Origin: an uncultured delta proteobacterium
Lineage (GTDB): Bacteria; Myxococcota_A; Polyangia; Haliangiales; Haliangiaceae
Length of the DNA stretch: 64,000 bases
Direction: 5' to 3'
NCBI GenBank assembly: GCA_963848295.1
Contig: CAWKDB010000002.1
Coordinates: 1,088,001-1,152,000 of the forward strand
The stretch's first letter is position 1. Each line of letters starts with the position of its first letter. The notes under the pieces are model-generated. The model was not told the origin of the DNA, searched no databases, and was given only the letters and a program-made list of their open reading frames with translations. The position numbers were made by a program, and so were the translations under genes. This document shows, in pieces, positions 7,908 through 54,604 of the stretch.

Positions 7908-9350
7908 ATGAACCGTACTCGCGTGGCTGTAGTTCTGGCCGTGACTCTCGGCGCGAGCGCCGGATCGGCCGCGCCGATCCACGAGGTGCTCGGGCATCCG
8001 AACTTCGCGGCGATGGCGCCGGTCCCGATGTTGACCAACTCGCACACCGTCTACCTCAACAAGTGCGCGGGCGGTTGCATCGTCCACACCGGCGACACCG
8101 ACGCGCGCACGAGCACGTCCGACATCGCCTCGGGTCAGCTCGGCGCGTTCACCGGGACCGACACCCAGTGGTCGAGCATCGTCAGCTGCGTCAAGGGCGT
8201 CATGGCGCCGTTCAACATCACGGTCACCGATACCGATCCGGGTGCGACCACCTCGCGGTTCGAGGTCATGGTGGCGGGTAAGGCGTGCGACATCCTGCCG
8301 GGCTCGATCTGCAACGGCATCGAAGGCGTCGCCGACGCGATCTGCCAGAGCCCGGGACAGTGCTTCGTCCCGTACCTGCCGAACGGCCTGGTGTTCGCGT
8401 TCTCGACGACCGAGCAGAACCAGGTCACGCTGATCTGCGGCACGATCGCACAGGAGGTCGCGCACGACTGGACGCTCGATCACGTCATCGAGTCGAACGA
8501 CCCGATGACCTACAACAACTACGTGACGCCGCTCAGCTACCAGAACGGCACGCGCTGCGGCAGCGACTGCTTGTACCAATGCCCGAGCGGCACGGGCTCG
8601 TGCAACGCCTACGGCACGACGTGCACGGGCAGCGGCGGCAGCGCGACCCACATCTGCCAGAGCACCGGTCAGGCGACCCAGAACGAGGTCGACACGATCA
8701 ACGCCCTGTTCGGGCCGCAGGGCGCCGCGGCCCCGACGCTGAAGATCACGTCGCCGGCCGACGGGTCGGCGGTCCAGGCCGGGTTTCCGATCGACGTCAC
8801 CTGCACGTCGCCCGACGGCATCCTCGAGGTCGACCTGTCGGTCGATGGCGTCGCGACCGCGACGCTGACCGCCGCGCCGTTCAACTTCGTCGCACCGTCG
8901 ACGCTCAAGGACGGCACCCACACGATCTCGGTGCTGTGCGGCACGACGAAGCAGGCGATCGCGACCGTCACCGAGAACCTCATCATCGGCGAGAAGTGCA
9001 GCAAGGACGCGGACTGCACCGAGACCGGATACATCTGCTACGAGGATGCGTGCATCGCCGGCCCGAACGCGCCGGGCGGCCTCGGCACGACGTGCACGAC
9101 GAACGGGATGTGCGCGTCGGGGTCGTGCACGAGCGACGGCACGAATTCGTACTGCGTCGTCCCGTGCGACACGAACAACGACCAGTGTCCGTCCGGCACC
9201 GGCTGCCTGGCCGACGGCAACGGCGGGGTGTGCTGGCCCGGCGCGAGCCATGGCTCCGGCGGCGGCGGCTGCAACACCGGCGGCAACGGCACGCTCGTGG
9301 TCGTGCTCGGCCTCGGCTTCCTCGTGCTCGGCCGGCGGAGGCGCGCGTGA
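7908..9350 (+). CDS. Secreted Cys-rich metzincin-like protein with Ig-like domain and MYXO-CTERM-like anchor (paralog 2)
   Basis: Signal peptide, QEVAHDWTLDH + DPMTY, Ig-like domain, GGC-TM-RRRRA tail. Confidence 0.8.
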   Translation: MNRTRVAVVLAVTLGASAGSAAPIHEVLGHPNFAAMAPVPMLTNSHTVYLNKCAGGCIVHTGDTDARTSTSDIASGQLGAFTGTDTQWSSIVSCVKGVMAPFNITVTDTDPGATTSRFEVMVAGKACDILPGSICNGIEGVADAICQSPGQCFVPYLPNGLVFAFSTTEQNQVTLICGTIAQEVAHDWTLDHVIESNDPMTYNNYVTPLSYQNGTRCGSDCLYQCPSGTGSCNAYGTTCTGSGGSATHICQSTGQATQNEVDTINALFGPQGAAAPTLKITSPADGSAVQAGFPIDVTCTSPDGILEVDLSVDGVATATLTAAPFNFVAPSTLKDGTHTISVLCGTTKQAIATVTENLIIGEKCSKDADCTETGYICYEDACIAGPNAPGGLGTTCTTNGMCASGSCTSDGTNSYCVVPCDTNNDQCPSGTGCLADGNGGVCWPGASHGSGGGGCNTGGNGTLVVVLGLGFLVLGRRRRA

Positions 9351-10840
9351 AGACGCTGGCGCTCGCCGGGTTCGCGATCGCACTGGCATCGACCGCGCAC
9401 GCGGATCCACGCGGGCCGACGCCGCTCCACACGATCGACGAGGATGCGCGGCCATCCTATGCCACGCGCCCGATCGACTACATGTTCCCGATCACGATCG
9501 ATCCCGCGAATGTCGAGCCCACGATCTCGAACAACATCATCTATCTCAATAACTGCCAGCCGAACGGCTGCACGCTACGCCCGGGCACCACGGACTCGCG
9601 CACCGACACGTCGGAGCTGCTCCAGGGCGAGGCCGTGCTCACGCCATTCGACGACAGCGATGCGACGTGGAACGCGGTCGTGCAGTGCATGCAGGACGTG
9701 TTCTATCCGTACAACATCCAGATCACGACGACCGATCCGGGCAGCGCGCCTCACTTCGAGATCATGATCGCGGGCAACCCGACCGACATCGGGCTGTCGA
9801 GCGGGTATGGCGGCGTGTCGCCGTACGCGTGCGGGGCCTCCGGCGGCTATATCCCGAACGCGCTCGTGTTCGACTTCTCGAAGGTGTGGGGCGGTCGCGT
9901 CGAGGATCTGTGCTCGACCGCGGCGCAGGAGATCGCGCACTCGTTCACGCTCGACCACGCGGACGATCCGTCGGACCCGATGACGTACTTCACGTCGTTC
10001 ACCACGCGGCGCTACTTCAACAGCAGCGCGCAGTGCGGCAGCGACTGCGTCAACAGCAAGAGCCCGCAAGGCCCCGGCGTCGGCGGCTATACGTGCACCG
10101 GCGCCGCTCCGGGGATGGGCACCTCCGGTCCGCAAGCTCACCCGTGCGTCTGCACCGGACAGGCCACGCAGAACGAGAACGGCAAGTGGACCAGCCTGTT
10201 CGGCGCGAGCTCGATGGCCGGACCGACGGTCGCGATCACCAAGCCGCTCGACGGCGCCGCGGTCCAGGCCGGGTTCGTCGTGGACTCGACCGCGACGAAC
10301 ACGATCGGTGTGACGAAGGCCGAGCTCTACATCGACGGCACGCTGGCCAGCACGGTCACGAGCTCACCGTACATCTTCAACTCGCCCGCGACGCTCGGGC
10401 CCGGCGCACACGTCGTCAAGGTCACCGCGTACGATCACTACGGCGACACCGGCAGCGCGCAGGTCAACGCGATCATCGGCACGCCGTGCAAGTCGGCGTC
10501 GGACTGCACGAACAGCAACGACGTGTGCATCGCCGGTCGCTGCCTGCTCGGCCCGGGCCAGCCGGGCGGGCTCGGCGCGACGTGCATGAACGGCCCGGAC
10601 TGCGACTCCGGCCAGTGCACGAGCGACGGCACGAATTCGTACTGCGCGACGTCGTGCGATCTCGGCCAGGGCGAGTGCCCCTCCGGTTTCGGCTGCCTCG
10701 ATTCCGGCAACGGCGTCGGCGTGTGCTGGCCGGGCTACGACGACGGCTCGAGCAAAGGCGGCGGCTGCCAATCGGGCGGCAACACGACGTTCCTCGGCTT
10801 GGGCTTCGCGCTGCTGTTCCTGCGCCGTCGCAAGAAATGA
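9347..10840 (+). CDS. Secreted Cys-rich metzincin-like protein with Ig-like domain and MYXO-CTERM-like anchor (paralog 3)
   Basis: GTG start overlapping the previous stop (GTGA), QEIAHSFTLDH + DPMTY, GGC-TM-RRRKK tail. Confidence 0.8.
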   Translation: MKTLALAGFAIALASTAHADPRGPTPLHTIDEDARPSYATRPIDYMFPITIDPANVEPTISNNIIYLNNCQPNGCTLRPGTTDSRTDTSELLQGEAVLTPFDDSDATWNAVVQCMQDVFYPYNIQITTTDPGSAPHFEIMIAGNPTDIGLSSGYGGVSPYACGASGGYIPNALVFDFSKVWGGRVEDLCSTAAQEIAHSFTLDHADDPSDPMTYFTSFTTRRYFNSSAQCGSDCVNSKSPQGPGVGGYTCTGAAPGMGTSGPQAHPCVCTGQATQNENGKWTSLFGASSMAGPTVAITKPLDGAAVQAGFVVDSTATNTIGVTKAELYIDGTLASTVTSSPYIFNSPATLGPGAHVVKVTAYDHYGDTGSAQVNAIIGTPCKSASDCTNSNDVCIAGRCLLGPGQPGGLGATCMNGPDCDSGQCTSDGTNSYCATSCDLGQGECPSGFGCLDSGNGVGVCWPGYDDGSSKGGGCQSGGNTTFLGLGFALLFLRRRKK

Positions 10841-11667
10841 GCCCCCTTGCGCGCGCGTCCGCCGCCGCGTACGCCCGGCTCCTGGTCACCGGCGACACGC
10901 TCGCCGACAAGCTCGCGCCGGCGCCGGCCGAGCTCGACTTCGCGGGCGGTGCGGCCGAGCGGATCGCGGCGCCGGGGCGACCGGCCGGGCTCGCGATCGT
11001 GCCCGGCCGCAAGTCCCGAGTGCCGCCGGTCGCGGGGATGCGCGATCCGGCGCAGCGCGCACGCATCCTCCACGCGCTCGCGAACCACGAGCTCCAGGCG
11101 ATCGAGCTGTTCGCGTGGGCGGTGCTGGCGTTCCCCGCCACGCCGGTCGCGTTTCGCAGGGGCCTCGTCGCGATCGCGAGCGACGAGCAGCGCCATCTCC
11201 AGCTCTATCTCGACCGGCTCGCCGCGCACGGGATGCGGTTCGGCGATTGTCCGGTGACCGGACACTTCTGGAACAAGCTCGACCACCTGAGCGGTCCACT
11301 CGAGTTCGTGTGCGCGATGGGCCTGACGTTCGAGCAGGCGAACCTCGACTTTGCCGGCGACTATGCGGCCGCGGCGCGCGCGGCCGGCGACACCGCGACC
11401 GCCGACGCGCTCGCGCAGGTCCACGCCGACGAGATCGGCCACGTCCACTTCGGTTGGGTGTGGCTGCGCCGGCTCGCCGGCGACGACAGCGGATCGTTCG
11501 ACGCGTGGCGGGTCTACAACGACCACGTCAAGTTCCCGCTCGGACCCAGGCGCGCTCGCGGTGCTCGCCTCGATCGCGACGCGCGCCGGCGCGCCGGCAT
11601 CGACGAGGCCTTCATCACCGCGCTCGCCGGCGTCTCGCCGACGCGACCGAGCGGCGAGCCGCGATGA
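10837..11667 (+). CDS. Ferritin-like (DUF455-type) diiron protein
   Basis: LHALANHELQAIEL, DEQRH, FEQANLD and DEIGH carboxylate/His ligands; ATGA overlap with the upstream gene. Confidence 0.85.
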   Translation: MSPLARASAAAYARLLVTGDTLADKLAPAPAELDFAGGAAERIAAPGRPAGLAIVPGRKSRVPPVAGMRDPAQRARILHALANHELQAIELFAWAVLAFPATPVAFRRGLVAIASDEQRHLQLYLDRLAAHGMRFGDCPVTGHFWNKLDHLSGPLEFVCAMGLTFEQANLDFAGDYAAAARAAGDTATADALAQVHADEIGHVHFGWVWLRRLAGDDSGSFDAWRVYNDHVKFPLGPRRARGARLDRDARRRAGIDEAFITALAGVSPTRPSGEPR

Positions 11668-12507
11668 TCCTGTGGGCGAACCTCGATCAGGAAGCGCGCT
11701 GGGCGGGCGTCCAGCTCAAGCCCGACGTGATCAAGCTGATCCGCGGCCTGGCCGATCAGCTCGCCGCGCTCGCGCCCGCGGGCGAACCGGTCGAGCTGTG
11801 GCGGCCCGGCGACGGCACGCCGCCGCGCTGGGACCTCGCCTGGGCGGATCCCGAGGCCAAGGCGGTCAACGATCGCCGGTTCGCGCTCGGGCTGGGGTTC
11901 GCGCTTCCGGGGGCGCGCGTGGTGTCCTCGCTCGCCGAGCTCGATGCGCACATCGCGGAGCAAGCCTCGATGGCCGAGACCTGGGCCCGGTCATCATCAC
12001 CGAATGGGAGCGCGGGTGGATCGCCCGCCTGGGTGTGCAAGGCGCCGTGGACCGCGGCGGGCCGCGACCGGTGTTTCGGCGAAGGTGCGCCGACCGCCGA
12101 CCGGCGGACGCGGATCGAGCGCCTGCTCGCCAGCTTCGGCGCGCTGGTGTTCGAGCCCTGGCTCGACCGCATCGTCGATGTCGGCGTGTGCGCGGCGATC
12201 GATCGCGCCGGCGCCGTCGTCGCGAAGCCGCCGCACCAGCTGAAGACCACGCCACGCGGCGGCTTCGCCGGCATCGATCTCGTCCCCGCCCCCGCTCGCC
12301 GCGGGCGAGCTCGACCGCCTCGCCGCTGCGGTCGCCGCCGCGGGCGCGGCGCTCCATCGCGCGGGCTACGCCGGGCCGTTCGGGATCGACGCGTTCGCGT
12401 ATCGCGAAGGGGGCGAGCGCAGGTTCCACCCGCTGTGCGAGCTCAACGCGCGCCACACGTTCGGCCACGTCGCGTGGGCGGCGGGGCGATTCGACCCGGC
12501 GGTGTGA
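11664..12507 (+). CDS. ATP-grasp-like protein (apparent frameshift near 12290)
   Basis: WVCKAPWTAAGR and FEPWLDR; after the shift GYAGPFGIDAF...CELNARHTFG, ending at TGA 12505-12507. Confidence 0.7.
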
Positions 12508-12558
12508 GACCCGAGTCCCGGACGTGCGCGGACCGAGCTCCAACGATAATGTTTCGCC

Positions 12559-13446
12559 ATGGCCGAGCTCGATGCGGTGATCGACGCCTGCCGCGCCGCG
12601 CTCGATCGACGAACCGCGCCCCCATTCGGCGGCGCGGCCGACCGGGGACGAGCCCCCGCCGTCGACCGTCCGGCCGGTGTCGTCGTGTTGACCGGAGCCG
12701 GCGTCAGCGCCGAGAGCGGCATCCCGACGTTCCGCGGCAAAGAGGGTTACTGGACGGTCGGCGCGCGCGAGTACCACCCGCAGGAGCTCGCGACGTTCGA
12801 CGCGTTCTCGCACATGCCGTGGGACGTCTGGGCCTGGTACCTCTATCGGCGCGGCGCATGCCGGCGCGCCGAGCCGAACCCCGGCCACCGCGCGCTCGTC
12901 CGGCTCGATGCCGCGCTCGGTGACCGGTTCGTCCTGGTCACCCAGAACGTCGATGGCCTGCATCGCCGCGCCGGCAGCCCGAACGCGCGCACGTTCCCGA
13001 TCCACGGCGACATCGACCTCATGCGATGCGCCGCCGAGTGCGGGCCCGACCCTTGGCCGATCCCCGAAGCCGTGCCGGCGCTCGCGCGGGGCGAGCCGGT
13101 GACCGAGGCGAGCCGCGCCCTGCTCCACTGCCCGCGCTGTCACGGCCCGGGCCGCCCGCACGTGTTGTGGTTCGACGAGACCTACGACGAGCGCCGGTTC
13201 TTTCTCGACACCACGCGCCGGCTCGCCGCCGAGGCCGCGCTGCTCGTGATCGCGGGGACGTCCGCACAGACCAACCTGCCGTGGCAGATCGTCTCGCTCG
13301 CGGCGAAGGGTGGTGCCACCATCGTCGACATCAACGTCGAGCCGAACCCGTTCGGCGACATCGCGGCGCGCACCGGCGGCGAGGTCCGGTCGCCGTCCGC
13401 GATCGCCTTGCCCGCGATCGTCGATGCGCTGATCTCGCCGTCGTAA
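12559..13446 (+). CDS. cobB: NAD-dependent deacylase, Sir2/CobB family
   Basis: GAGVSAESGIPTFR, TQNVDGLH, HG, two Cys pairs and GTS motif. Confidence 0.92.
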   Translation: MAELDAVIDACRAALDRRTAPPFGGAADRGRAPAVDRPAGVVVLTGAGVSAESGIPTFRGKEGYWTVGAREYHPQELATFDAFSHMPWDVWAWYLYRRGACRRAEPNPGHRALVRLDAALGDRFVLVTQNVDGLHRRAGSPNARTFPIHGDIDLMRCAAECGPDPWPIPEAVPALARGEPVTEASRALLHCPRCHGPGRPHVLWFDETYDERRFFLDTTRRLAAEAALLVIAGTSAQTNLPWQIVSLAAKGGATIVDINVEPNPFGDIAARTGGEVRSPSAIALPAIVDALISPS

Positions 13447-22895: not shown

Positions 22896-24910
<2,015 letters not shown>

Positions 24911-24956
24911 CGCGGCGACTGGATAGCACGAACCGCGACGGAGCGCGCGTCGGGAT

Positions 24957-25310
24957 CTAGCGCGGGGGCGCGGTCTTGCCGCGGCGGCGTTCGCTGCGTG
25001 CGACCAGCGTGCTCGGTAGCGTGCCCTCGCGCTCGAGCTTCTTGATCTCGTCGCCGAGCGCGCGCAACACCTTGAGCCGCGCCGCATCGTCGCGGAACCG
25101 ATCGACGAGCTCGCCGTACAGCTCGCGCACGGCATCGCCGTCGGGCGGACTCGCCATCACCGAGCGCAGCACCGCGACCCGCCAGCGCAGCTCGAGCTCG
25201 CCGCCGACCTCGAGAGCGAGCGCATCACCGACGGCCCGTTCGCTCGGGATCTTCGCGCGATCGGCTTCGCAACGCTCGACGAGCGCGGCTAGTCGCTTGG
25301 CGGCGGACAT
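24957..25310 (-). CDS. Hypothetical protein (117 aa)
   Basis: MSAAKRLAAL... 3' part of ORF 24957..27440; helical composition, TACGCT box upstream. Confidence 0.7.
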   Translation of the reverse strand: MSAAKRLAALVERCEADRAKIPSERAVGDALALEVGGELELRWRVAVLRSVMASPPDGDAVRELYGELVDRFRDDAARLKVLRALGDEIKKLEREGTLPSTLVARSERRRGKTAPPR

Positions 25311-36012: not shown

Positions 36013-36077
36013 TCACGATCGATCCGGCATTGCCTGTTGCCCGTCGCCTGTTGATCAATTGATCAATTTCTCAACTC

Positions 36078-36479
36078 TCAGGAACTGGGCGTGGCGACCA
36101 CCACCCCATGAAACATATCCATCCCACACGCGAACCCGACTTCTCCGGTCGCAGGCACGGTGACCGGAACCTCGACCGGCTTGCCGAGCGGAAGATCGAC
36201 GAGCTTGCCGTCCGGCGTCTTCAACTTCGAGATGCAATCCAAGGCCGCGGTGCGCGTGAACACCAGGACGAGCTTCTCGCCCGGCTTGCCCGGGATCCGC
36301 GCCGGCGTATAGCCGTCCTTGTTCGCCTCGATCGCGATCCGGGTAGTGCCGTCGGCGCTCGTGACCCGCGCGACTTCTTGCGCGACCGCGCTACCCGCTT
36401 TGTCGCCGGCGGGCGCGGCCTTCTTCGAGCAGCCGGCGAACAGCGATAGACCGAAGACGACGAGCAGGGCGCGCTTCAT
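36078..36479 (-). CDS. Cupredoxin-domain lipoprotein
   Basis: Lipobox FAGC, GYTP and FACGMDMFHG. Confidence 0.88.
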   Translation of the reverse strand: MKRALLVVFGLSLFAGCSKKAAPAGDKAGSAVAQEVARVTSADGTTRIAIEANKDGYTPARIPGKPGEKLVLVFTRTAALDCISKLKTPDGKLVDLPLGKPVEVPVTVPATGEVGFACGMDMFHGVVVATPSS

Positions 36480-40837: not shown

Positions 40838-41872
40838 ATGAACCCTCAGCCGCGCATCCTGGTCATGGGCGCCGGTGGCATCGGCGGCATCGTCGCCGCG
40901 ACCCTGACCGAGGTCGGCGCCCCGGTGACCGCAGTGTCGACCAACCTCGAGATCCGCGCTGCCGTCGACAAATCGGGCTTCAGGTTGGTCGACGAAGGCG
41001 AACAACGCACGGTGCGCGGTTGGGTCTCGCCCGCGCCCGAGGGCCGCTACGACCTGTGCGTGCTCGCGACCCAGCCGCCGAACGTCGAGGACGCCGCCCT
41101 GACCGCCCTCACCCACCTCGCCGACGATGCCGAGGTCGTCGTGCTGCAGAACGGGCTGTGCGAAGAGCGCGTCGCCTCGATCGTGGGCGAGCGCCGGGTG
41201 ATCGGCGCGATCGTCGCGTGGGGTGCCTCGATGCCGGAGCCCGGGCGCTACGAGCGCACGGCATCGGGCGGGTTCCAGATCGGCCGGCTCGATGGCGAGA
41301 TCGACGAGCCGGTGCGCCGGGTCGCCGAGCTGCTCGAGGCGATCGGCCCGGTGACGATCACGAAGAACCTGCGCGGCGCGCGGTGGAGCAAGCTGGCACT
41401 CAACTGCGCGGTGTCGGCGGTCGGCACGATCGCGGGTGAACGGCTCGGTCCGCTCGTCCGGGTGCGGCGCTATCGCCGGCTCGCGCTGGAGGCGATGACC
41501 GAGGCCGTGACCGTCGCGAAGGCCGAAGGCATCGCGCTCGAGAAGGTTGCGGGCACGCTCGACCTCGAGTGGATCGCGCTGTCGGAAGCGGATCGCGCGT
41601 CGCGTGGCTCGGCGAGCCTGACCGCGAAGCACGCGCTGCTCCTCGCGGTCGGCCTGCGCTACCGCCGGATGCGGTCGTCGATGATCGCGGCGATCGAGCG
41701 CGGCCGGACGCCCGCGATCGATTTTCTCAATGGCGAGGTCGTGACGCGAGGCAAGGCGCGGGGCATAGCGACGCCGTTCAACGAGCGCATCGTCGAGGCG
41801 GTGTGGGACATCGCGAAGGGCAAGACGAAGGCGTCGCGCGAGACGCTCGACAAGGTGTGCGGCGGGGAGTGA
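40838..41872 (+). CDS. Ketopantoate reductase (PanE/ApbA) family oxidoreductase
   Basis: GAGGIG, LQNGL, WSKLALN and SSM...IDFLNG. Confidence 0.85.
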   Translation: MNPQPRILVMGAGGIGGIVAATLTEVGAPVTAVSTNLEIRAAVDKSGFRLVDEGEQRTVRGWVSPAPEGRYDLCVLATQPPNVEDAALTALTHLADDAEVVVLQNGLCEERVASIVGERRVIGAIVAWGASMPEPGRYERTASGGFQIGRLDGEIDEPVRRVAELLEAIGPVTITKNLRGARWSKLALNCAVSAVGTIAGERLGPLVRVRRYRRLALEAMTEAVTVAKAEGIALEKVAGTLDLEWIALSEADRASRGSASLTAKHALLLAVGLRYRRMRSSMIAAIERGRTPAIDFLNGEVVTRGKARGIATPFNERIVEAVWDIAKGKTKASRETLDKVCGGE

Positions 41873-41882
41873 CGCGGCGGAG

Positions 41883-42055
41883 ATCGCGAACGCGCGCGCT
41901 GGCGAAGCTGTCACGGGGTCCTGCGCGCGGCGCGCGATCGGCGGTGCGGGACAACGGGCGGTGCATCGCGTTTTGCTACGCCGGCGCATGATGATCGACT
42001 TGGAAGTTACGCGCTTGGACCCCGTGCAGCTCCGCCTTGCGCGCGCTGACGCGAT
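41883..42055. repeat. Long hairpin element, left copy (core 41915-42023)
   Basis: Core is the reverse complement of 50537-50645 at 101/109 nt (manual alignment); flanks pair with each other. Confidence 0.85.
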
Positions 42056-42211
42056 CGCGATCGCTGTCCTGGATCGGGACAGCGACGGTGTGTTCGAGAT
42101 CCGGACCTCGGGTTTCGGAAAAGCGCGCTTGAAAAACGCTGCGCGAATCTTGTAGAAAGATGCAATGAGGTCGTGTGGCGGGTTGGTAGCGCTGGTGACT
42201 GCTGCGTGCCC

Positions 42212-44523
42212 CAGACTTCGGGACGCTGATCTCATTGGAGTTGGGTTTCGAAGCGTAGGGGAAGGCGCTTGTGATCACTCGGCAGGATCAGGCCGCGCTG
42301 GGTAAGATGACCGAGCAGATGATGAATCGCGTCGAGCTCGGATCGATTGGCTGCGGGCGCGAGGCGGACGATGATGGCGTGTTCGGTGATTGCCACCTTT
42401 GCCGGCGCGGCGAACAGGTTCGCGACGAGCTTCTTCGCCTCTCGGGGCCGGCTCATGTGCGGTGCGGCGATCGCGGCCAGCTCGGACTCGGCGTTGGCGC
42501 AGACGACGCGGATGACGTCGATGACAGTCTTGAGCTTGCCCGTGTGGCGGACGAGCTTGCCGGCGAGCTCGGTCTCTTCGACGGCGGCGTGCTTCGGAAA
42601 CAGCGGGCGGAGCGCCTCGAGCTGCCGCTGCCATTCGAGCGACTCTGCGAGCTCGCGTTCGACACGCTCGCGTCGCTTGTCGTCCGCGGCCAGCCGCGCC
42701 AGCTCGCGGCGTGCGTCGCCCTCGGCGGTGCGCCAGACCCGCAGCGCGCGCTCGAGCTTTCGACGTGCCGGGTTCGGGATGATCGTCCCGGGTGGATACG
42801 GTTCGACGCGCCGGCCGTCGAGCTGGTTGATGCCCCAGCGCTCGACCCCGTGCTTGAAGCCGTTCTCCTGGCGCCAGCGGAGCCACAGGATCTCGACGAG
42901 CCGCTCCGCGGGCAGCTTCGAGGCGGCGAGCAAGCTCACCTGTCGACCATCTTCGGTGCAGACCATGATGCGACGAAGGCGCCCGCGACCCTCGCCGAGA
43001 TTTCGCAATCGGCTCTCGTGCAGCCCGACCTGTTCGCCCGCGATCGTCGCCGCTGTAAACGCCGTCGCCGGCAGCTCGGCGTAGGGCTTTCGCTCGTACG
43101 TGACGAAGTCGAAGTGGGCCTCGCGCAGCGCCGCGAGTTGCGCGGCAAACGCACCACCGCGATCGAAGGCGAGCAGGATCGTCTCGTCGGGGCCGAGCGC
43201 TTTGCGCAGGCGCTGGCCCAGGGGCAGCAGCCACTCGGTCAGGTGATCGTGCGACGGCACCGGCACGCGAAACATCGGCCGGCCGTCCTCGTCGTGGACG
43301 TAGTAGTCGGTCGTCCCGGGCAGCACGCGCTTGGCCTGCATCCGCCAGCCCTTTCGCACGACATGCTTGCCCGTATACGGCCGTAGATGGTTGTCGACGT
43401 AGAAGATCGCCGGGGCGCCGTCGCTCGCTGCGGTTGCGATCAGCCGCTCGGCCATCCGTGCCTCCAGCGCGGCGCCGGCGTCGGTCTGTGCGAGCAATCG
43501 ACCGAGGATCTTGCGGACCCCGCTGGCCGTGGGCACGCGCTCGGCGCGCAGCAGCGTCGCGCCGGTCGGTGTCGCGAGTCGGCGCACACCCTCGACGACG
43601 AATTGCTTGAGCGCGAGCGCACAGATCACCGCGTCGAGCGCGATCCGCAGCCCATCGGGATGCCGGCCCTCGAACGCGCGCTGCGCCTCTTCGTGCAGCC
43701 CCATCTCGCCGGCAAGCGCGAGCAAGATCCAGCAGCCGGCGTGCTGCACGAGCTTTCCGCCGCGGACCGGCTGCGCCGTCATCGGCACCTGATCCTTGTC
43801 GTCGAATTCGTCGGCCGTGACCGGATCGTCGCCGAGGTCGACATCGCGATCCGGTCCGGCGATCAGCAGTGCGAGCTGCCCGGCGATCGCGGTCGGCGCG
43901 GCCTGCCGTGCCGCCTCGACAGGGCTCCCGGCGGCGCGCTCACGACGCCAGTCGTCCCAAACGCGCCACACCGTCGAATACACGAGGCGCTGTTTGCGCG
44001 GCTGTTCGCGGTGCGCGTCGATCGGCATTCGCCCCGCGTCGAACATCGCGTACCAAACAGTTCGCAACTCCCGCGTTACCTTCGTAACTCCTCCGCGTCG
44101 CGGTCCCAGCACCGCAGCAAACCCCGCGGCTTCTTCCTTCCGCCGCAGGCGCCGCAAATGTTCGTCCGTGATCCCGAATGCTGTTGCCAGTCGCCCGAGG
44201 TGGAACTGATCGGTTTTCGCGAGCGTCACTGCCAGTACGTTGCGAGGGCCGCGGTCATCGTCGTCCAGATCGAACCCGCCGATCAGCGTCCCGCCGATGT
44301 ACACGCTCGCGATCGTGTCCCGGACGATCACCACCCCGTCCGACGAGAAACGCCGGATTTCGTGGGCGGGCTTTGGCGACGGCTCAGGCAAGGCGAGGTC
44401 GAGAGCTTCCATCGTTGCCAAGACAACCGCCAGCGATCCGAAATTCCCACAATCCATCGATCTAATCGAATTCTCGTAAACCCGCGTCATTCGATCAGTT
44501 CACGAAATGCGGCCCGAACTCTG
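42212..44523 (-). mobile_element. Complete insertion sequence, 2312 bp
   Basis: TIRs CAGACTTCGGGACGC / GCGGCCCGAACTCTG (13/15 match) and direct repeat GTGCCC at 42206-42211 and 44524-44529. Confidence 0.9.
42232..44490 (-). CDS. DDE transposase (IS4-superfamily-like) with N-terminal HTH
   Basis: FYVDNH, AFDRGG and RWRQENGFK catalytic-type motifs; fills the element. Confidence 0.88.
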   Translation of the reverse strand: MTRVYENSIRSMDCGNFGSLAVVLATMEALDLALPEPSPKPAHEIRRFSSDGVVIVRDTIASVYIGGTLIGGFDLDDDDRGPRNVLAVTLAKTDQFHLGRLATAFGITDEHLRRLRRKEEAAGFAAVLGPRRGGVTKVTRELRTVWYAMFDAGRMPIDAHREQPRKQRLVYSTVWRVWDDWRRERAAGSPVEAARQAAPTAIAGQLALLIAGPDRDVDLGDDPVTADEFDDKDQVPMTAQPVRGGKLVQHAGCWILLALAGEMGLHEEAQRAFEGRHPDGLRIALDAVICALALKQFVVEGVRRLATPTGATLLRAERVPTASGVRKILGRLLAQTDAGAALEARMAERLIATAASDGAPAIFYVDNHLRPYTGKHVVRKGWRMQAKRVLPGTTDYYVHDEDGRPMFRVPVPSHDHLTEWLLPLGQRLRKALGPDETILLAFDRGGAFAAQLAALREAHFDFVTYERKPYAELPATAFTAATIAGEQVGLHESRLRNLGEGRGRLRRIMVCTEDGRQVSLLAASKLPAERLVEILWLRWRQENGFKHGVERWGINQLDGRRVEPYPPGTIIPNPARRKLERALRVWRTAEGDARRELARLAADDKRRERVERELAESLEWQRQLEALRPLFPKHAAVEETELAGKLVRHTGKLKTVIDVIRVVCANAESELAAIAAPHMSRPREAKKLVANLFAAPAKVAITEHAIIVRLAPAANRSELDAIHHLLGHLTQRGLILPSDHKRLPLRFETQLQ

Positions 44524-44692
44524 GTGCCCGAGCGCTGACTTTGTTCTGAGCATCGATGCCAGGACGTAATTCAGTTGGCTGTTCCCACCGTGTCTTAGAA
44601 TCGACTCGCGAGTGCGATGCCTGCCGCGATCACGGCACGCGATCGGGTTCGGTGGCGTCGGATCTGCGCATAGCGCTTCTCGCCGCGACGCT

Positions 44693-45094
44693 CTACGTTG
44701 TCATCACGACGTCGATGTCCACGTTCGCGCCGAGTGCTACAAGCGTGATTAATAGCTCTACGGGGAAATGCAGAGCCGGGATCGTGGACGACGTGAACCA
44801 CACTTCGAGACAGACGTTGCAGCCTGATCGAGTCAGGTCCAAAAATCGGTTTTCCCGTCCTTTGACTCTAGCAAGCAGGCCGGCAATGAACGCGGGCAGC
44901 TCCAGACCCGCGTCGGCGTCATTCGGTTCCTGGCTGCAGAGCTTCCAGCAGTGTCGCTTTCGTTTTCGGTGCTCTCCGGGTGGCGGAAACCGCTCTCCCT
45001 TCCGCCAGCTCGTATCGGCGGTCATATCTAGTTGAAGCTGGATATGGTCGGGATCGAGATCGTCGCTAAACACTGCCAGGTTGACCGTCAACAC
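44693..45094 (-). CDS. DUF4279-like small protein
   Basis: DDLDPDHI...SWRKGE...WKL...LGANVDIDV pattern; lower GC than the flanks. Confidence 0.7.
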   Translation of the reverse strand: MLTVNLAVFSDDLDPDHIQLQLDMTADTSWRKGERFPPPGEHRKRKRHCWKLCSQEPNDADAGLELPAFIAGLLARVKGRENRFLDLTRSGCNVCLEVWFTSSTIPALHFPVELLITLVALGANVDIDVVMTT

Positions 45095-45164
45095 GGACGC
45101 ACTCTACGCGAACGCGTGCCAGCGGAGCGTAGCCTACCGTCGCATGTGACTGCGAGCCGGCGTC

Positions 45165-45941
45165 CTACCACGTCGTGAACGGCTGGCCGATACCTACGTC
45201 CTCATACCAGACGTGCTCGCGGAGCTGGCGGGCGAGCATCGTTCGGATCGCGGTCCCCGTCGATGTCAGCGGCACTCCGTTCTCGAAGCCATCGCCGAGC
45301 TGCGGATCCTCGAGAGTGGCCTTCGCCGCGATGGCGTAGGTCGCCGCCGCGATGATCTGAGCCACGAGTGACGCACCGCTGCGCCCCGCCGCCGTCCGGA
45401 ACCACGCGCGCTGCTCGGTGCTGATCTCGCCGCGCTCGATCGAGGCGACCTTGGCACGAGCCTCGTCGATGATCATCGGCGCCGAGTTGATTTCGACCAG
45501 CGTCGCGATCCCACGGCGCAGGCGGGCGAGCGCGGCCTCGTCGGCCCGCGGACACGGCCCGAGCTCCTCGACGGTGAACTCGAAGTCCGCGCGTAAGGGA
45601 CCCGCGGTGATGAACTCGCGCGCCAGCGGAAACAGGTTCCGGTTCGCGATCTCCAGGCGCGCCGGCACCATGCCGTAGTGGGTCTCGAGCACGAAGCGTG
45701 GGTCGAACTCTAGCTTCACGTTGAGCAGCATCAGGTACAGCTGCCATTGCTCGATCGAGGTCGTGCGCCCCCCGCGGACCGTCAGCTCGAATGACACGCG
45801 GTACGCTACTCCTGGATGACCTGCGGCGGCAACTGACGTGGATGCGACGTGCGCAATGCGCTTGTCGATGCCACGCGCTTCAACTCCCCGTGGTGAGAGA
45901 TCCGCCGGTTCGAGTACGACCTCAACATCGAGATTTGGCAC
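45165..45941 (-). CDS. Hypothetical protein (258 aa)
   Basis: Long ORF with normal composition; no recognised family. Confidence 0.65.
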   Translation of the reverse strand: MPNLDVEVVLEPADLSPRGVEARGIDKRIAHVASTSVAAAGHPGVAYRVSFELTVRGGRTTSIEQWQLYLMLLNVKLEFDPRFVLETHYGMVPARLEIANRNLFPLAREFITAGPLRADFEFTVEELGPCPRADEAALARLRRGIATLVEINSAPMIIDEARAKVASIERGEISTEQRAWFRTAAGRSGASLVAQIIAAATYAIAAKATLEDPQLGDGFENGVPLTSTGTAIRTMLARQLREHVWYEDVGIGQPFTTW

Positions 45942-45970
45942 CGAACCTTATCGGGTCACTACGCCGGCGC

Positions 45971-46084
45971 ATAGAGTTGGAGAAGGTGTTCCGCAGCCTC
46001 CCGAAGCCAAGTGCGCTTCGCGATGCGAACGAGGCGAAGACACGCATCGTCTACATCGACCGTATCTTGAACGCGTGCGGCTGC
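45971..46084 (+). pseudogene. Possible fragment of an HsdR-N-like (restriction-type) protein
   Basis: NEAKTRIVYIDRILNACG resembles the NEAxTRxxxIDxIL N-terminal motif; no continuation. Confidence 0.3.
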
Positions 46085-46250
46085 GCGCTACGGCGAGCGG
46101 CGGATCGGAAAGTCAGTCCGCAGTTGCGGAGCCAGGGTGCCAAGGAAGACGCAAAAAGGCTAGGATCGAGCACCTCGCAATGTCGATACGTAGCCTCGCG
46201 TTCGCGACCGTGCTGGTGGCAACGTCGCAAGCCATCGCATCACCCTGTAC

Positions 46251-47468
46251 CGTCGCCGGACCCGCCGGACCCGACCGGAGGTCCTTTCGTCCAGCCGGCA
46301 ACAATCGACGACGAATCCCGCGAGTCGCGTACCTGGCCCTCGCGGGTGGTCGCGCCCTGCCCCACTGCGCGACCGACGCAGCGATGGTTCACCATGCAGC
46401 GGCGACGCACGACGGTCGGTCGAGCGTTAATAGCGATGGCGGTGGAGTCGCTCAGAGCGGGACGAGCGGGACGGGTTCCGTAGCAACGCCGGCGAACCGC
46501 GCGAGCCAATAGGTGCCGGATGGAAACAGCGAGGCAACTCGCGTCCTCCAAACCGCGAGCGCGAAGCGGTACGCGGCAAGAAACGAGTGGTACTTGCCGA
46601 GCGCCTCTGTGCGTGACTCGGTCCGGCCCGCGAAGCGCGGACGTAGGTTGCGCCGAGGCACGACAGAAGAGGGCGCCTCGTCCCAGCGTTGCTCCAGGAT
46701 TCGGCGGCGCCCGCAGACCGACGCACCGGTGTTACGCCGCTCCTCCGCAGCCTCGCGCTCGACACGCTCGACGCCCGCGCATACTTCGGCGATGAACGCG
46801 TCGGCCGGGCCGAGCTCGGCAGGAATCGTCATGCGGAGCTCGATCTCGTCGGGCAGCGCACCCGGACCACGAAAAAAGTGACGGGGTCGCGTTGCCCGCA
46901 GGCCCCGCCCCGACACGAGATTTGTGTACGTGTTCACGCCCGGCCAGTGGTGGACGCGCGCGACGAGACCATCTTTGACCGGATTGGTGATGGCATAGAC
47001 GACTTTGGCGATCACGGTCTCCCGATCGAGCAGCCGGGTCACGCACGGCTCCTCCGCGGCCCAGAAGTTCTCCCACCGCCCGCGCAGCGCGTTCTGGCTA
47101 CGAGCGACCAGGCTATGAAAGTACGTGAGGAACTCGGGATAGCGACCGTCGCGGTCGTAGATCGTCGTATGGTGGTGATTCGACTCCGCGACCGTATGGA
47201 CCACCTCCATCCCGCAGCGCTGCGCAGCGACCGCGAGGCAGTAGGCGTATGCGTTGTTCGTCGCGGCATCGGGCCGCAGCAAGAACCACCGGTTCGCACA
47301 ACGCCGAGTGATCAAGTGGAACTGGTTGCGAAGGACTTGGCGAGGTCGCGTCACGCGCATGACGTTCGCAAGAACCGCTCCGTCCCAACCCCGTGATCCT
47401 TGGAGTGCGTTTGTCCGAGCTGTCCGAGTTTGGCCGGATCCGGCCGGACAATGACCTCCGGTTCGGTC
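46251..47468 (-). mobile_element. HUH/Y1 transposase unit bounded by inverted short hairpins
   Basis: GGACC-cgaccgga-GGTCC at 46267-46284 and inverted GACC-tccggttc-GGTC at 47453-47468 flank the transposase; left part is duplicated. Confidence 0.65.
46452..47360 (-). CDS. HUH Y1 tyrosine transposase (RAYT/IS200-like)
   Basis: HLITRRC, SNHHH (HUH-like), NFW, YAITNPVKDGLV...WPG. Confidence 0.88.
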   Translation of the reverse strand: MRVTRPRQVLRNQFHLITRRCANRWFLLRPDAATNNAYAYCLAVAAQRCGMEVVHTVAESNHHHTTIYDRDGRYPEFLTYFHSLVARSQNALRGRWENFWAAEEPCVTRLLDRETVIAKVVYAITNPVKDGLVARVHHWPGVNTYTNLVSGRGLRATRPRHFFRGPGALPDEIELRMTIPAELGPADAFIAEVCAGVERVEREAAEERRNTGASVCGRRRILEQRWDEAPSSVVPRRNLRPRFAGRTESRTEALGKYHSFLAAYRFALAVWRTRVASLFPSGTYWLARFAGVATEPVPLVPL

Positions 47469-47472
47469 TGGC

Positions 47473-47718
47473 GCCGATCTTCCATCGGCGTACTTCGTGG
47501 TCGACGAAACTGAAGGGGCGTACGACGCCATGGTTCTGTACGCGGCGCTAATGGAGGATTGGGCACGTTCAGTTCTGGGATCCGGGAAGAGCATTTCTGA
47601 GGTCTATCCGGTTGCTGCCGAACCAACGCGCGCAAACGCCATCGCTCTTTTGTCGCGGGTAGCGTTCATCCGAGAAGCTGTACTTCCAAACGTCCGTGCG
47701 ACGATGAACGCATCTTAG
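47473..47718 (+). pseudogene. 5'-truncated DUF4826-like gene
   Basis: DLPSAYFV...YAALMEDW...YPVAAEPT...LSRVAFI begins directly after the hairpin at 47453-47468. Confidence 0.5.
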
Positions 47719-47741
47719 GGCCCGCGCGCCGGGCCGAATCG

Positions 47742-48569
47742 CGTCGGCCGGACCGCCCGGACCCGACCGGAGGTTCTTTCGTCCAGCCGGCAACAATCGG
47801 CGACGAATCCCGCGAGTCGCGTACCTGGCCCTCGCGGGTGGTCGCGCCCTGCCCCACTGCGCGACCGACGCAGCGATGGTTCACCATGCAGCGGCGACGC
47901 ACGACGGTCGGTCGAGCGTTAATAGCGATGGCGGTGGAGTCGCTCAGAGCGGGACGAGCGGGACGGGTTCCGTGGGTTCCGTAGCAACGCCGGCGAACCG
48001 CGCGAGCCAATAGGTGCCGGATGGAAACAGCGAGGCAACTCGCGTCCTCCAAACCGCGAGCGCGAAGCGGTACGCGGCAAGAAACGAGTGGTACTTGCCG
48101 AGCGCCTCTGTGCGTGACTCGGTCCGGCCCGCGAAGCGCGGACGTAGGTTGCGCCGAGGCACGACAGAAGAGGGCGCCTCGTCCCAGCGTTGCTCCAGGA
48201 TTCGGCGGCGCCCGCAGACCGACGCACCGGTGTTACGCCGCTCCTCCGCAGCCTCGCGCTCGACACGCTCGACGCCCGCGCATACTTCGGCGATGAACGC
48301 GTCGGCCGGGCCGAGCTCGGCAGGAATCGTCATGCGGAGCTCGATCTCGTCGGGCAGCGCACCCGGACCACGAAAAAAGTGACGGGGTCGCGTTGCCCGC
48401 AGGCCCCGCCCCGACACGAGATTTGTGTACGTGTTCACGCCCGGCCAGTGGTGGACGCGCGCGACGAGACCATCTTTGACCGGATTGGTGATGGCATAGA
48501 CGACTTTGGCGATCACGGTCTCCCGATCGAGCAGCCGGGTCACGCACGGCTCCTCCGCGGCCCAGAAGT
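47742..48569 (-). mobile_element. Second, 5'-truncated copy of the Y1 transposase unit
   Basis: Near-identical to 46251-47068 with a 9-bp duplication near 47966; lacks the HUH-encoding 5' part. Confidence 0.9.
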
Positions 48570-48570
48570 C

Positions 48571-48656
48571 ATCTACCTCGACATGTCCCTGCTCGACGAC
48601 AACTACGCCGCAGCAGCGTGACCACCCAGCAACTCGTGATGATCTCCTTCACGCAT
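48571..48656 (+). mobile_element. IS256-like transposase 3' remnant, copy 1
   Basis: Encodes IYLDMSLLDDNYAAAA-stop; last 60 bp repeated at 48965-49025. Confidence 0.5.
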
Positions 48657-48694
48657 CGCGGCCCGCAAAGTAGAATACGTGGCGAGATACCGCA

Positions 48695-48955
48695 ATGTGG
48701 CGAGCGATCAAGAAAATGTTGGGCCTGCCGACCGAACCGGAGAAGGCCGCGAGACAAGCGTTCAGCAAACGCCATCCCGACCGCATCATGTGGACCACTC
48801 TCGCGGCCAATGAAACCACTCGGTTCGTCGTCGGCGTTTTCTACGCCTGGGGAGGGATACCTCCCAGATACCGCTTCTACGCCGTGGAGAAAGCGACGAT
48901 GGCGGCCGAGGAACTACAAGACGACGCGGCGTACCGACCCAAGATCTGGCGGTGA
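48695..48955 (+). CDS. Small hypothetical protein (86 aa)
   Basis: ATG start, TAGAAT box upstream, normal composition. Confidence 0.65.
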   Translation: MWRAIKKMLGLPTEPEKAARQAFSKRHPDRIMWTTLAANETTRFVVGVFYAWGGIPPRYRFYAVEKATMAAEELQDDAAYRPKIWR

Positions 48956-48964
48956 CATCGACTT

Positions 48965-49049
48965 CGACAACTACGCCACCGCCGCGTGACCAACCAGCAA
49001 CTCGCGATGATCACCGTTCACGCATTCACACAAGATTTCGGACTTGACC
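48965..49049 (+). mobile_element. IS256-like 3' remnant, copy 2, with putative terminal IR
   Basis: DNYATAA-stop, then TCACACAAGATTTCGGACTTGACC, resembling IS256-family right ends. Confidence 0.5.
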
Positions 49050-49349
49050 CGGCTGCGCCCGCAGTACATCAAGCTCGATCGCGAGCTGATCATCGGGATC
49101 GATCGCGACCCGGAGCGCGCAGCGTTGGTCGGTGCGCTCGCTGATTACGGCACGCGAACCGGTGGGTGTGTGGTCGCCGAGTCGATCGAAACCGAAGCCG
49201 AGCTTCGCGCGGTGACCGCCGCCGGTGTCCACTGCGGCCAGGGCTTCCTACTCGGTCGCCCGGGCGATCTCACGGATGCGCCGTCGCCGATCGCAAGGCT
49301 CGGCACCCATGCGCCATGCCGGCGCGCCTCGACCTCGACGACGACGTGA
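49050..49349 (+). pseudogene. C-terminal fragment of an EAL phosphodiesterase
   Basis: RPQYIKLDR, VVAESIET and GQGFLLGRP; N-terminal part absent. Confidence 0.85.
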
Positions 49350-50293
49350 CGCCGACGTTGTCGCGCCTGGTCGACGACCTCCACGGCTTCGATGATTTCG
49401 CACAGGCGCTCCATCACGTGACCGAGTGCGCCCGTGAATTGATCGACGTCGAGCGGGTGAACCTGCGGCTCCTCGACGAGACCCGTACTCGATTGCTGAT
49501 CGCGGCTCGTTCAGGGCCGCCCATGCACGAAGATCAACGAACCGAATTCCGCATCGGCGAAGGGCTGGTCGGCTGGGTCGCGGCGAATGGGATTCCGCTC
49601 CGCCTCGCATGTGCCGACGAGGATCCGCGATTCGCGCTGAGGTCTAACCTCGCGGCGCCGATCGGGTCATTCGTCGGCGTGCCGGTGCTCGATGCCGACG
49701 GGTGTATCGGAGTGCTCTCGGCCGCCTCGACGCTGAACGCACGATTTTCGCCGTCCGATGAGGCTCGGCTCCGGCTCGTCGCTGGAATCGTTTCGCCCCA
49801 CTTGCAGATCGTGCGATTGCGCCGGCTCGCCAAGACCGACCCGTTGACGTGCGTGCTCAATCGGCACGCACTCGACGACGTGCTACCCGAGATCCCGCAG
49901 GGCGATGCGAAGTTCTCGGTCGCGATGATCGATCTCGACCACTTCAAGGCGATCAACGACCGGCTCGGCCACGCAGCTGGGGATGAGACGCTGCGCGCGG
50001 CAGCTGCCGCGATCATCTCGGTGCTCCGCCGTGACGACGATGTCGTACGGATCGGCGGCGAGGAGTTTCTGGTCGTGTTGCCCGGAGTCGACGTCGAGAC
50101 CGCCCGGGCGATTGCAGATCGCGCGCGCATCCGAATCGCTGAAGCGGACGTGCTTCCGGCGGAGCGGATCACGGCATCCGCCGGCGTGACCGAGCGCCGC
50201 CCAGATGAAACACGCGAGCGCCTGCTCCATCGCGTCGACGCGGCTCTCTATCGGGCCAAGGCACTCGGGCGCAACCGCGTCGTCGTTGAGTGA
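49316..50293 (+). CDS. GAF-GGDEF diguanylate cyclase
   Basis: GEGLVGWV GAF, DPLT, DLDHFKAIND, RxxD I-site, GGEEF and LYRAKALGRN. Confidence 0.95.
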   Translation: MPARLDLDDDVTPTLSRLVDDLHGFDDFAQALHHVTECARELIDVERVNLRLLDETRTRLLIAARSGPPMHEDQRTEFRIGEGLVGWVAANGIPLRLACADEDPRFALRSNLAAPIGSFVGVPVLDADGCIGVLSAASTLNARFSPSDEARLRLVAGIVSPHLQIVRLRRLAKTDPLTCVLNRHALDDVLPEIPQGDAKFSVAMIDLDHFKAINDRLGHAAGDETLRAAAAAIISVLRRDDDVVRIGGEEFLVVLPGVDVETARAIADRARIRIAEADVLPAERITASAGVTERRPDETRERLLHRVDAALYRAKALGRNRVVVE

Positions 50294-50503
50294 AGTCTCG
50301 CGACGCCTGTCGCCATCGTCAGCAGTTGCCATTGTTCATCCCCGACCGGAGATTCCTCAGACGCGACCGGGTTCAGAACCGACCGGAGGTTCTGGCGTAC
50401 CGGCGCTCGTGACCGACCGGCCAAGTTGCCCGCGCCCCGCGATCGCCCGCATCTCGTCTGCCCCCCATCGCTCTCGAGGGGGGTTGTCGCGAGGTGCGCG
50501 CGA

Positions 50504-50676
50504 TCGCGGCTGCGCGCGCGACCGGAGCGGGACCTTGGGGTCCAAGCGCGTAACTTCCAAGCCGATCATCGTGCGTCGGCGTAGCAAAACGCGATGCACC
50601 GCCCGTGGTCCCGCACCGCCCACCGCGCGCCGCGCGCGGGAACCCAAGGTCACCGCTCCAGCGCGCGTAGCCGCGA
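50504..50676. repeat. Long hairpin element, right copy (core 50537-50645), inverted relative to the left copy
   Basis: GGAGCGG-GACCTTGGG pairs with CCCAAGGTC-a-CCGCTCC around the conserved core. Confidence 0.85.
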
Positions 50677-50749
50677 GGGCGCAACGCTGCGAGAGCGCGC
50701 GCAGCCGCGAGGGCGCAACGCTGCGAGAGCGCGCGCAGCCGCGAGGGCG
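50669..50749. repeat. 34-bp tandem repeat, about 2.4 copies
   Basis: AGCCGCGAGGGCGCAACGCTGCGAGAGCGCGCGC at 50669 and 50703, partial at 50737. Confidence 0.9.
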
Positions 50750-50759
50750 TGACGCCGCG

Positions 50760-51902
50760 TCAGGCCAGCAAGTAGCGGACGAGAGCACGCACGCGCGGCT
50801 CGAACGTCGCGATCACCGCGAACTCGTCGGGCGTGTGAAACAGCCGGCCGCGCGGGCCGAGGCCGTCGATCGCGGGGACGCCGAGCGCGGCGAGCGTGTT
50901 CGCATCGGAGCCGCCTCCGACGAGCGGCGCCTCGTCGGCTTGCAGGCCCTCGGCGCGCGCCGCGGCGGCGTAGCGCTCGACGAGCGCGGCGGTGCCGGGC
51001 AGAGGCCCGAGCGGCTGCCGGCGCAGGCCGCCTGCGATCGAGAACGTCGCGCCGGTCGCGTCGCTGACCTCCCGCGCGGATCGCTCGATCGCCGCGAGCA
51101 ACGGGTCGGCTTGGGCGGGCTCGGTGATCCGCAGATCGATCTCGCAGCGCGCCTCGGCGGGCACCGTGTTCGCCGCGGTGCCGCCCGCGACCAGACCGAC
51201 GTTGACCGTGACGGTGCCATCGGGCGCGCCGAGCGCCTGCACGCGGTCGATGAACCGAGCGAGCGCCCAGATCGCGTTGATCCCGAGGGCCAGATCGTTG
51301 CCGGCGTGCGCGGGCTTGCCATGCGCGGTCACGACGAGCTTGCCGGTGCCCTTGCGGCGCGTGACGATCGCGTCGGTCATCCGGCCCGCCTCGAACACCA
51401 ACCCGGCGCTCGCGTCGCGCGCGAGCTGCTCGATCACGCGGCGGCCGTCGACCGAGCCGGTCTCCTCGTCGGCGACCGAGATCACGCCGATCGGCAACGC
51501 GGCGAGCGCGCCGGCGTCGGCGAGCGCGGCGAGCGCGGTGCGCACGATCGCCAAGCCGCCTTTCATGTCGAGCACGCCGGGGCCGTAGACGTTGAGGTCA
51601 TCGCGGCGAAAGCCTTCGAACGTGCCGGGCGGGAACACCGTGTCGTGGTGACCGACGAGCGCGGTGCCCGGTCGCGAGCCCCATGCGGTCGTCGTGAAGG
51701 CGAGGTGATCGCCCGACGCCGCGCCGGCAATCCGCTGCGCGGAGACTCCGGGCAACGCGAACGCGCGAGTCAGCTCGTCGGCCATCCGGTTGCAACCCGC
51801 GTGGTTGCCGGTATGCGAGTTGATGTCGACCCACGCCTCGACGAGGTGCCACAGCTCCGGCATCCGGCGCGACACCGCCGCGAGCGCTGCTGCCGTCGTC
51901 AC
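50760..51902 (-). CDS. M20 family metallopeptidase (carboxypeptidase G2-like)
   Basis: GHHDTVF, GPGVLDMKGG, DEETGS, FEAG, GGSDAN and HTPDE. Confidence 0.93.
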   Translation of the reverse strand: MTTAAALAAVSRRMPELWHLVEAWVDINSHTGNHAGCNRMADELTRAFALPGVSAQRIAGAASGDHLAFTTTAWGSRPGTALVGHHDTVFPPGTFEGFRRDDLNVYGPGVLDMKGGLAIVRTALAALADAGALAALPIGVISVADEETGSVDGRRVIEQLARDASAGLVFEAGRMTDAIVTRRKGTGKLVVTAHGKPAHAGNDLALGINAIWALARFIDRVQALGAPDGTVTVNVGLVAGGTAANTVPAEARCEIDLRITEPAQADPLLAAIERSAREVSDATGATFSIAGGLRRQPLGPLPGTAALVERYAAAARAEGLQADEAPLVGGGSDANTLAALGVPAIDGLGPRGRLFHTPDEFAVIATFEPRVRALVRYLLA

Positions 51903-54500: not shown

Positions 54501-54604
54501 CGAGCGGCCCCCAGCCCCGTAAGGCCCGCTCGGCCGGCGTCCTTGCTCCGCCGGACAGCCGACCGATCGATCGGCCTCGCGGCCGTGGTAAACCCCGGCT
54601 GTAA

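Follow-up and report, generated by a model that had tools for sequence, protein, structure and literature searches.

An 8.4-kb island of myxobacterial DNA is bracketed by two inverted copies, one of type A and one of type B, of a 170-nt hairpin repeat that carries no gene. It lies in a 64,000-nt stretch (hereafter the window) from an uncultured delta proteobacterium (contig CAWKDB010000002.1, positions 1,088,001 to 1,152,000; assembly GCA_963848295.1, 7.8 Mb, here G000), between the host genes panE and M20 peptidase, and it contains the gene of a Y1 (HUH) transposase. From sequence comparison we favor, tentatively and at slightly less than an even chance, the reading that this is a young repeat similar to the REPINs (hairpin-forming doublets of repetitive extragenic palindromes, REPs) and that it is likely copied in trans as single-stranded DNA (ssDNA) by the neighboring Y1 transposase. 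With the same reserve, and as part of the same reading, we take the island to be the product of accumulated separate events between a stable A-B pair and not a single element.

The repeat is gained or lost directly behind stop codons, and the Y1 enzyme, acting in trans, would copy it as ssDNA in REPIN fashion. The Y1 cassette, which has short inverted ends of its own, would land in or beside type B; deletions and duplications from these ends may shorten hairpins and make tandem arrays, and other mobile DNA (a DDE insertion sequence, a second miniature inverted-repeat transposable element, or MITE) could join the site. Through the shared core, copies would be able to recombine, which might homogenize the cores and transfer inner flanks from one site to another. 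The REPIN-like hairpin proposed in an initial annotation, made from the sequence alone, is upheld by our analysis, and its overall interpretation is upheld in part.

The hairpin repeat and its family

The 109-bp inverted core reported in the initial annotation was confirmed: positions 41915-42023 and 50537-50645, compared in inverted orientation, differ at 8 positions and belong to an inverted repeat of 163 nt (80% identity) that is the longest in the window. By profile, fold, and alignment, the left copy, type A, occupies 41884-42053 on the + strand, with its core at 41915-42023, and the right copy, type B, 50506-50676 on the - strand, with its core at 50537-50645. Inverted arms and a spacer form a hairpin in ssDNA, with folding z-scores of -4.69 and -5.48 for the left copy (+ and - strands) and -3.92 and -4.57 for the right copy (- and + strands); in each case none of 200 shuffled sequences folded as well.

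A profile search of G000 identified 12 full copies and one half copy (E ≤ 7e-38 and 2e-10, respectively; best E in the reversed genome, 0.043), and two shorter remnants were recognized by eye. Contig C7 duplicates a stretch of contig C10 at 98.6% and so adds nothing; contig C8 (L008) matches the same stretch at 89% (C10:3590-3595 kb), carries other cargo, and probably derives from a related lineage binned into the assembly. With C8 also set aside, nine full copies at eight sites remain. Among 91 genomes of the genus, a covariance model found the repeat in only two, G000 and that of a sister species (G112), in a search that scored 30 candidates per genome and could miss distant families. The two genomes are 88.8% identical over the 470 kb aligned. 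BLASTN in 60 relatives returned short GC-rich matches only (13 candidates scored per genome), and an exact 22-nt pattern occurred only in a single Kofleriaceae assembly of the species genomes searched and in four contigs of one metagenome, of the same sister organism. The only hosts so far are two sister species of soil myxobacteria. We found no published description of the repeat, although the TIR (terminal inverted repeat) sequence lists that accompany PMC3733652 may bear on this, and no literature on a repeat together with a transposase in Kofleriaceae.

The stems are as first described in the two window copies, but they are not specific to each copy: they go by subtype, the arms being 52%-65% identical between A and B and 78%-100% identical within a type. 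Similarly, the bulged T noted on the equivalent arm is present in both window copies but is not family-wide; read by eye from the family alignment, it occurs in eight of nine A copies and in one of six B copies, the one in the window. The cores do not sort by arm type. They are 83%-99% identical among copies, about 90%, compared with a genome average of 88.8%. No GTAG or GGAG tetranucleotide is seen at the foot of the stem (alignment A1, by eye). Two other identities were considered and rejected, a coding-gene remnant, since deletions of 5 and 14 nt disrupt the frames, and an integron attC site, whose core motifs were not seen by eye. A MITE belonging to the small repeat family of window positions 54529-54585 is inserted inside a B hairpin of the sister species (L229:1537-1629), with a 7-bp duplication.

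The hairpin structure is conserved. Both sides change in 11 of the 49 pairs, and 96.6% of cells are paired, against 90.2% after shuffling. The covarying pairs are all confined to the outer stem, and most of them represent subtype block switches, roughly three to four when counted from the alignment. We rejected covariation copy by copy as proof of selection, because arm-to-arm template switching could give block switches without it. The earlier proposal of a structure-selected element is not supported as first stated: the subtype block switches are few, and conservation of the core does not exceed the average of the genome.

Of 18 copies tested, 17 lie ≤83 nt behind a stop codon and in the same orientation. 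At the exception, a four-helix-bundle gene and what we take, from features of domains V-VI, to be a group II intron fragment intervene before the stop. A 3′ group II intron fragment overlapping a four-helix-bundle (23S IVP) gene lies just outside a B hairpin at L004:10870-11520. The initial annotation had set against its own idea a common 3′-of-gene repeat with no link to Y1 loci or to variable cargo; the repeat is indeed dispersed 3′ of genes, yet it is linked to Y1 and its cargo varies. Its placement could also point to a functional 3′ RNA structure, for stability or termination, that is selected and homogenized by gene conversion while mobile DNA collects passively in tolerant convergent gaps. 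The sense-strand RNA folds slightly better (mean, -99.0 vs. -92.6 kcal/mol), and core changes keep G-U pairs, as such a role might predict. We nevertheless regard it as very improbable, given that the repeat occurs in two species only and is absent at orthologous genes of the sister, that the cores diverge at about the genome rate, and that Rfam, in which a match would have refuted the annotation's idea, gave none at the gathering score. In addition, no terminator pattern was found in 41850-42250, the outer stem has no strand bias (nine G-U vs. seven A-C), and the polarity around Y1 genes described below would be left unexplained.

Gain, loss, and turnover at the repeat sites

Comparison with the sister species shows sites with and without the repeat. 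A lone A copy occupies 226 nt in G000 where the sister has 8 nt, and a half B with a Y1 cassette occupies 1842 nt where the sister has 7 nt, both being absent together. No target duplication was seen at these two clean empty sites. The lone A lies at a co-directional junction, and no more than 65 nt of flank came with it when it was gained. At a third compared site the sister has a resident gene and no hairpin, and two further sister flanks were uninformative or nonhomologous. The sister in turn carries an A copy that G000 lacks, flanked by a 10-bp direct repeat; this is the one such repeat among 15 copies, and the fixed-length target duplication of classical DDE MITEs is thus not a feature of the family.

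The window's own junction was checked in relatives as first suggested. The repeat lies behind panE in none of 29 congeners (one of which, G010, is flagged as an unpublished genome; no claim depends on it), and most have a convergent gene directly there. The one congener in which M20 adjoins panE (G072) has a different, 138-nt hairpin at that place (L109:1351-1488). This belongs to a repeat family of its own, with 61 matches, conserved arms, and a variable loop, that is unrelated to the 170-nt repeat and has no match at 14 Y1 loci of that genome. Because the contigs of the sister break off within panE and M20, the sister comparison covers junctions other than that of the window, and four low-depth DNA contig sets yielded no informative joint.

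All five inverted pairs in the two species consist of one A and one B, with none A-A or B-B. They are located in the window, at C10:3946 kb, at C10:3590 kb (also in C8 and L077), at the radA site of the sister, and in a collapsed B/A hybrid hairpin, also in the sister (L081). At all four sites shared by the sister species the inner DNA differs: A Y1 cassette in one corresponds to a lipoprotein gene and an SpvB-domain RHS-like gene in the other; one site has three different contents; a tandem B-B stands against a Y1 cassette accompanied by a duplication of the radA end; and Fic, HipA, and XRE genes stand against almost nothing. Among 45 convergent control junctions with both genes shared, seven differ by >150 nt, and the excess of cargo turnover over these controls is real. 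The idea of a gene-capture hotspot is supported as regards variable cargo, but not as regards capture by Y1. The same 150- to 320-nt flank follows A at three nonorthologous sites, a pattern consistent with recombination between copies or with co-movement.

The strict pairing raises an alternative in which a composite B-[Y1]-A element, with B as its true left end and A as its true right end, inserts at convergent junctions and exchanges or captures inner DNA. Five of five inverted pairs are A-B, the polarity is B-gene-A at four of four loci, the sister has the collapsed hybrid, and one site shows three different cargos. Against it stand the gain of a lone A, with its 65-nt flank, at a co-directional junction and the cargos, which do not recur elsewhere together with their ends and are ordinary island content; moreover, the Y1 homologues of other species have no such ends. 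On balance we judge this alternative improbable. The same small probability applies to a related proposal, that a TIRYT-type Y1 (the transposase type of the TIRtrons) recruited the two oriented hairpins, B as the left pad and A as the right, and with their help swaps or captures cargo of kilobase size at convergent junctions, and, jointly with it, to the cargo then being RHS toxin cassettes, immunity-like genes, and toxin-antitoxin pairs. If true, this would be an integron-like cassette site driven by an HUH enzyme and caught within two species of its origin.

The Y1 transposase beside the repeat

The Y1 gene of the window (46452-47360, - strand) encodes a protein of ∼302 amino acids (aa) of class-2 type with N-H-x-H and Y-x-x-x-N-P motifs. 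Residues N62, H63, H65, Y123, N127, and P128 are invariant in all 31 homologues (these include G075, a genome flagged as unpublished, on which no claim depends). It matches NF047646 with an E value of 2e-7, below the cut-off, its Atlas neighbors are Y1_Tnp, and no PDB match was found. Y-x-x-x-N-P together with HUH is given as the class-2 signature in the relevant section of PMC6006769, and our placement follows length and motifs against Table 1 of that paper. G000 has four full loci of this kind, each between arrays of a short inward-facing motif in the layout of a TIRtron, and by a loose pattern 20 of 27 homologous loci have the motif facing inward on both sides. In the window the downstream end is at 46267-46284 (+) and the upstream end at 47454-47468 (-). 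These short ends do not fit the sequence GGGGWSAS and are confined to the loci of this Y1.

Other Y1 groups are present in the genome. At C10:2679995 and C10:1101414 (L134 and L133) lie two typical TIRtrons, with ends of GGGGAC type that occur dispersed in the genome, at 53 and 31 places, respectively. A third multicopy group (C10:261773 and about eight related loci, ∼240 aa) shows a conserved motif upstream and lacks obvious inverted ends, and two of its copies are frameshifted.

Three of the four full Y1 loci lie ≤5 kb from a hairpin copy, two abutting it at 6-7 nt, while 1.4% of the genome is that near; by binomial arithmetic the chance of this is ∼1e-5. None of the 11 other Y1 genes of G000 is within 5 kb of a copy (nearest, 5.1 kb). 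At all four linked loci, one of them in the sister, B lies upstream on the strand of the gene, and in three A lies downstream; the order at the sister locus is reconstructed from two contigs joined by shared repeats. The link to Y1 loci that had been proposed is thus supported, but hairpins as ends served by the Y1 enzyme are not supported as first stated: At three of the four loci the repeat stands beside a gene that is bounded by separate short ends, and no such long hairpin lies beside the homologues of other species. On the inner side of each hairpin the annotation had also marked a copy of the motif that bounds the Y1 gene. The one at 50375 is a real remnant of the downstream end of another Y1 cassette (50375-50453, + strand; score 56 vs. 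a best of 31 in 300 shuffles), yet it faces away from the Y1 gene of the window and so is not its outer boundary; its own gene would have lain between the remnant and hairpin B, in the same polarity. The copy at 42103 is doubtful, not being retained in the two other copies of that flank.

Our preferred reading, copying of the repeat by Y1, would by analogy take E. coli TnpA_REP as its model, a hairpin-binding enzyme that cleaves ssDNA in the vicinity with low specificity (PMC3333891). Several observations weigh against it. The Y1 family is present in 73 of the 91 genus genomes, and scorable flanks of homologues in other species have no such hairpin (the one high score is a run of N; the detector separates modestly, with controls at 25-26 and 32 and a background maximum of 25 in 40 windows). 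One full Y1 locus has no hairpin, nor do the orphan ends at C10:547-552 kb, most hairpin copies have no Y1 nearby, and about ten copies are far fewer than typical REPINs have. Derivation of the hairpin from Y1 downstream flanks was rejected, as the likeness is not significant (best E, 0.35), and the sole likeness to the short ends is an 8-nt match in one B copy. The Y1-hairpin junctions share no cleavage motif, some showing 1-3 nt of microhomology by eye, and the 10-bp direct repeat at the sister's A copy is unlike an HUH insertion. As for turnover, in 26 more control junctions one gene only is matched, and convergent junctions vary often anyway.

Instead, some other transposase, or recombination, may spread the hairpins, with the Y1 cassette using them as preferred landing sites, in the way that REPs serve several insertion sequence families. 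We consider this fairly unlikely. Y1 has its own ends, its short-end arrays truncate B at differing points, and two Y1 copies that are 98.3% identical adjoin B copies with different stem blocks. Other mobile DNA too is found in or by hairpins (the MITE inside B, the intron fragment), and the unrelated hairpin family at the panE-M20 junction of a congener has no Y1 beside it at the loci checked. Against this, the half B and its Y1 cassette are jointly absent from the 7-nt empty site, the repeat shows no tie to another transposase, and the two clean sites lack target duplication. If the hairpins are only passive targets, they are one more species-specific repeat among several in the genome.

Composition of the island and comparison with known systems

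The left border is panE (ketopantoate reductase, 40838-41872, +; Pfam ApbA/ApbA_C), whose stop is 11 nt before hairpin A. The flank of A (42054-42210, +) contains a small hairpin, present at 42061-42085 as annotated, and the beginning of a gene for a small lipoprotein (ATG at 42165), which is interrupted by a DDE insertion sequence (42211-44524, -). The latter encodes a Transposase_29 protein of 752 aa with weak IS1380/IS1634 matches, has inverted ends, a 4-bp target duplication, and seven near-identical full copies in the genome, and is unrelated to the hairpin repeat. Cargo follows in the form of a DUF4279 protein (44693-45094, -; family search) and a 258-aa open reading frame (ORF) without family match (45165-45941, -). 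Beyond the Y1 gene, a 73-aa ORF without family match (47497-47718, +) lies between Y1 ends. Two-thirds of the Y1 cassette, from its 3′ side, are then duplicated in tandem (47742-48569, -), and the duplicate includes a downstream end at 47759-47776. The segment 48597-49025 (+) holds an 86-aa ORF (48695-48955) flanked by 60-nt direct repeats (48597-48656 and 48965-49025), each of which reads as a short frame ending in an Ala-rich tail that resembles a degradation tag. Further cargo is an EAL fragment and a GAF-GGDEF gene (49044-50293, +; family search). The annotated small inner hairpin at 50461-50483 (neither strand assigned) is present and is absent at other repeat copies. Outside hairpin B are tandem 34-nt copies of its outer end (50677-50750, -) and the M20 peptidase gene (50760-51902, -; family search), behind whose stop codon hairpin B lies.

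By Pfam search of 16 ORFs outside the hairpins and a survey of multicopy DNA in the window, transposase genes occur only between the hairpins, as first noted, and no long multicopy DNA was found outside; small multicopy repeats, on the other hand, are also present there. These are an intergenic repeat of ∼50 nt at 36016-36084, with at least 20 matches in the genome, and a second small family at 54529-54585 (19 exact-seed copies). Elsewhere in the window are three tandem paralogous Ig-domain genes ∼1.5 kb apart (6349-10840) and apparent frameshifts, possibly assembly errors, in an ABC-F-like gene (23870-24960) and another gene (11660-12570).

In the sections of PMC3733652 and PMC6006769 cited here, TIRYT-type Y1 enzymes have no tested substrate, and the hairpin loci offer a candidate. 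The value of this set of loci lies in its two-type hairpin, fixed gene polarity, empty and filled sister sites, and a pair of recent copies with 98% identity. These loci may reveal how families of REPIN-like repeats arise, and whether the turnover of antagonism genes in myxobacteria is driven by HUH enzymes.

The comparisons that follow hold for the parts of each source drawn on here. Among known systems, the REPINs and their RAYT (REP-associated tyrosine) transposases (PMC3116915) share with the repeat a gene-less extragenic hairpin, two inverted arms with a spacer, compensatory changes, tandem clusters, and a location by a Y1 gene; like them it is dispersed and polymorphic for presence and absence. 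It differs in that the spacer is conserved and the arms vary by subtype (52%-65% between types, cores about 90%), the reverse of REPINs, and in having about ten copies and not hundreds, no GTAG foot, and a Y1 bounded by other short ends. E. coli REPtrons with their bacterial interspersed mosaic elements (BIMEs; PMC3333891) likewise have two repeat types inverted around a Y1 gene, which can be deleted to leave the flanking repeats or be replaced by a toxin-antitoxin pair. Their REPs are 30-40 nt with a GTAG guide, however, there is one REPtron per genome, and that account describes no kilobase cargo turnover. Mobile elements also insert at palindromic REPs (PMC1525189), but these belong to other insertion sequence families with fixed insertion points, whereas here the junctions vary.

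The Y1 cassette itself is closest to the TIRtrons with their TIRYT genes (PMC3733652; subclass 2.1/2.3 of PMC6006769), as a class-2 Y1 of ∼300 aa that has inward-facing inverted repeats, in place of REPs, on either side (four of four G000 loci). Its short end differs in not fitting GGGGWSAS, the consensus of most but not all TIRs, and in staying at Y1 loci. In some TIRtrons the TIRs are long and self-complementary and make up dispersed families (PMC3733652), whereas the dispersed partner here is a separate 170-nt hairpin of two oriented types. The repeat thus behaves like a REPIN beside a TIRtron, departing from REPINs in two features, the conserved arms and the GTAG foot.

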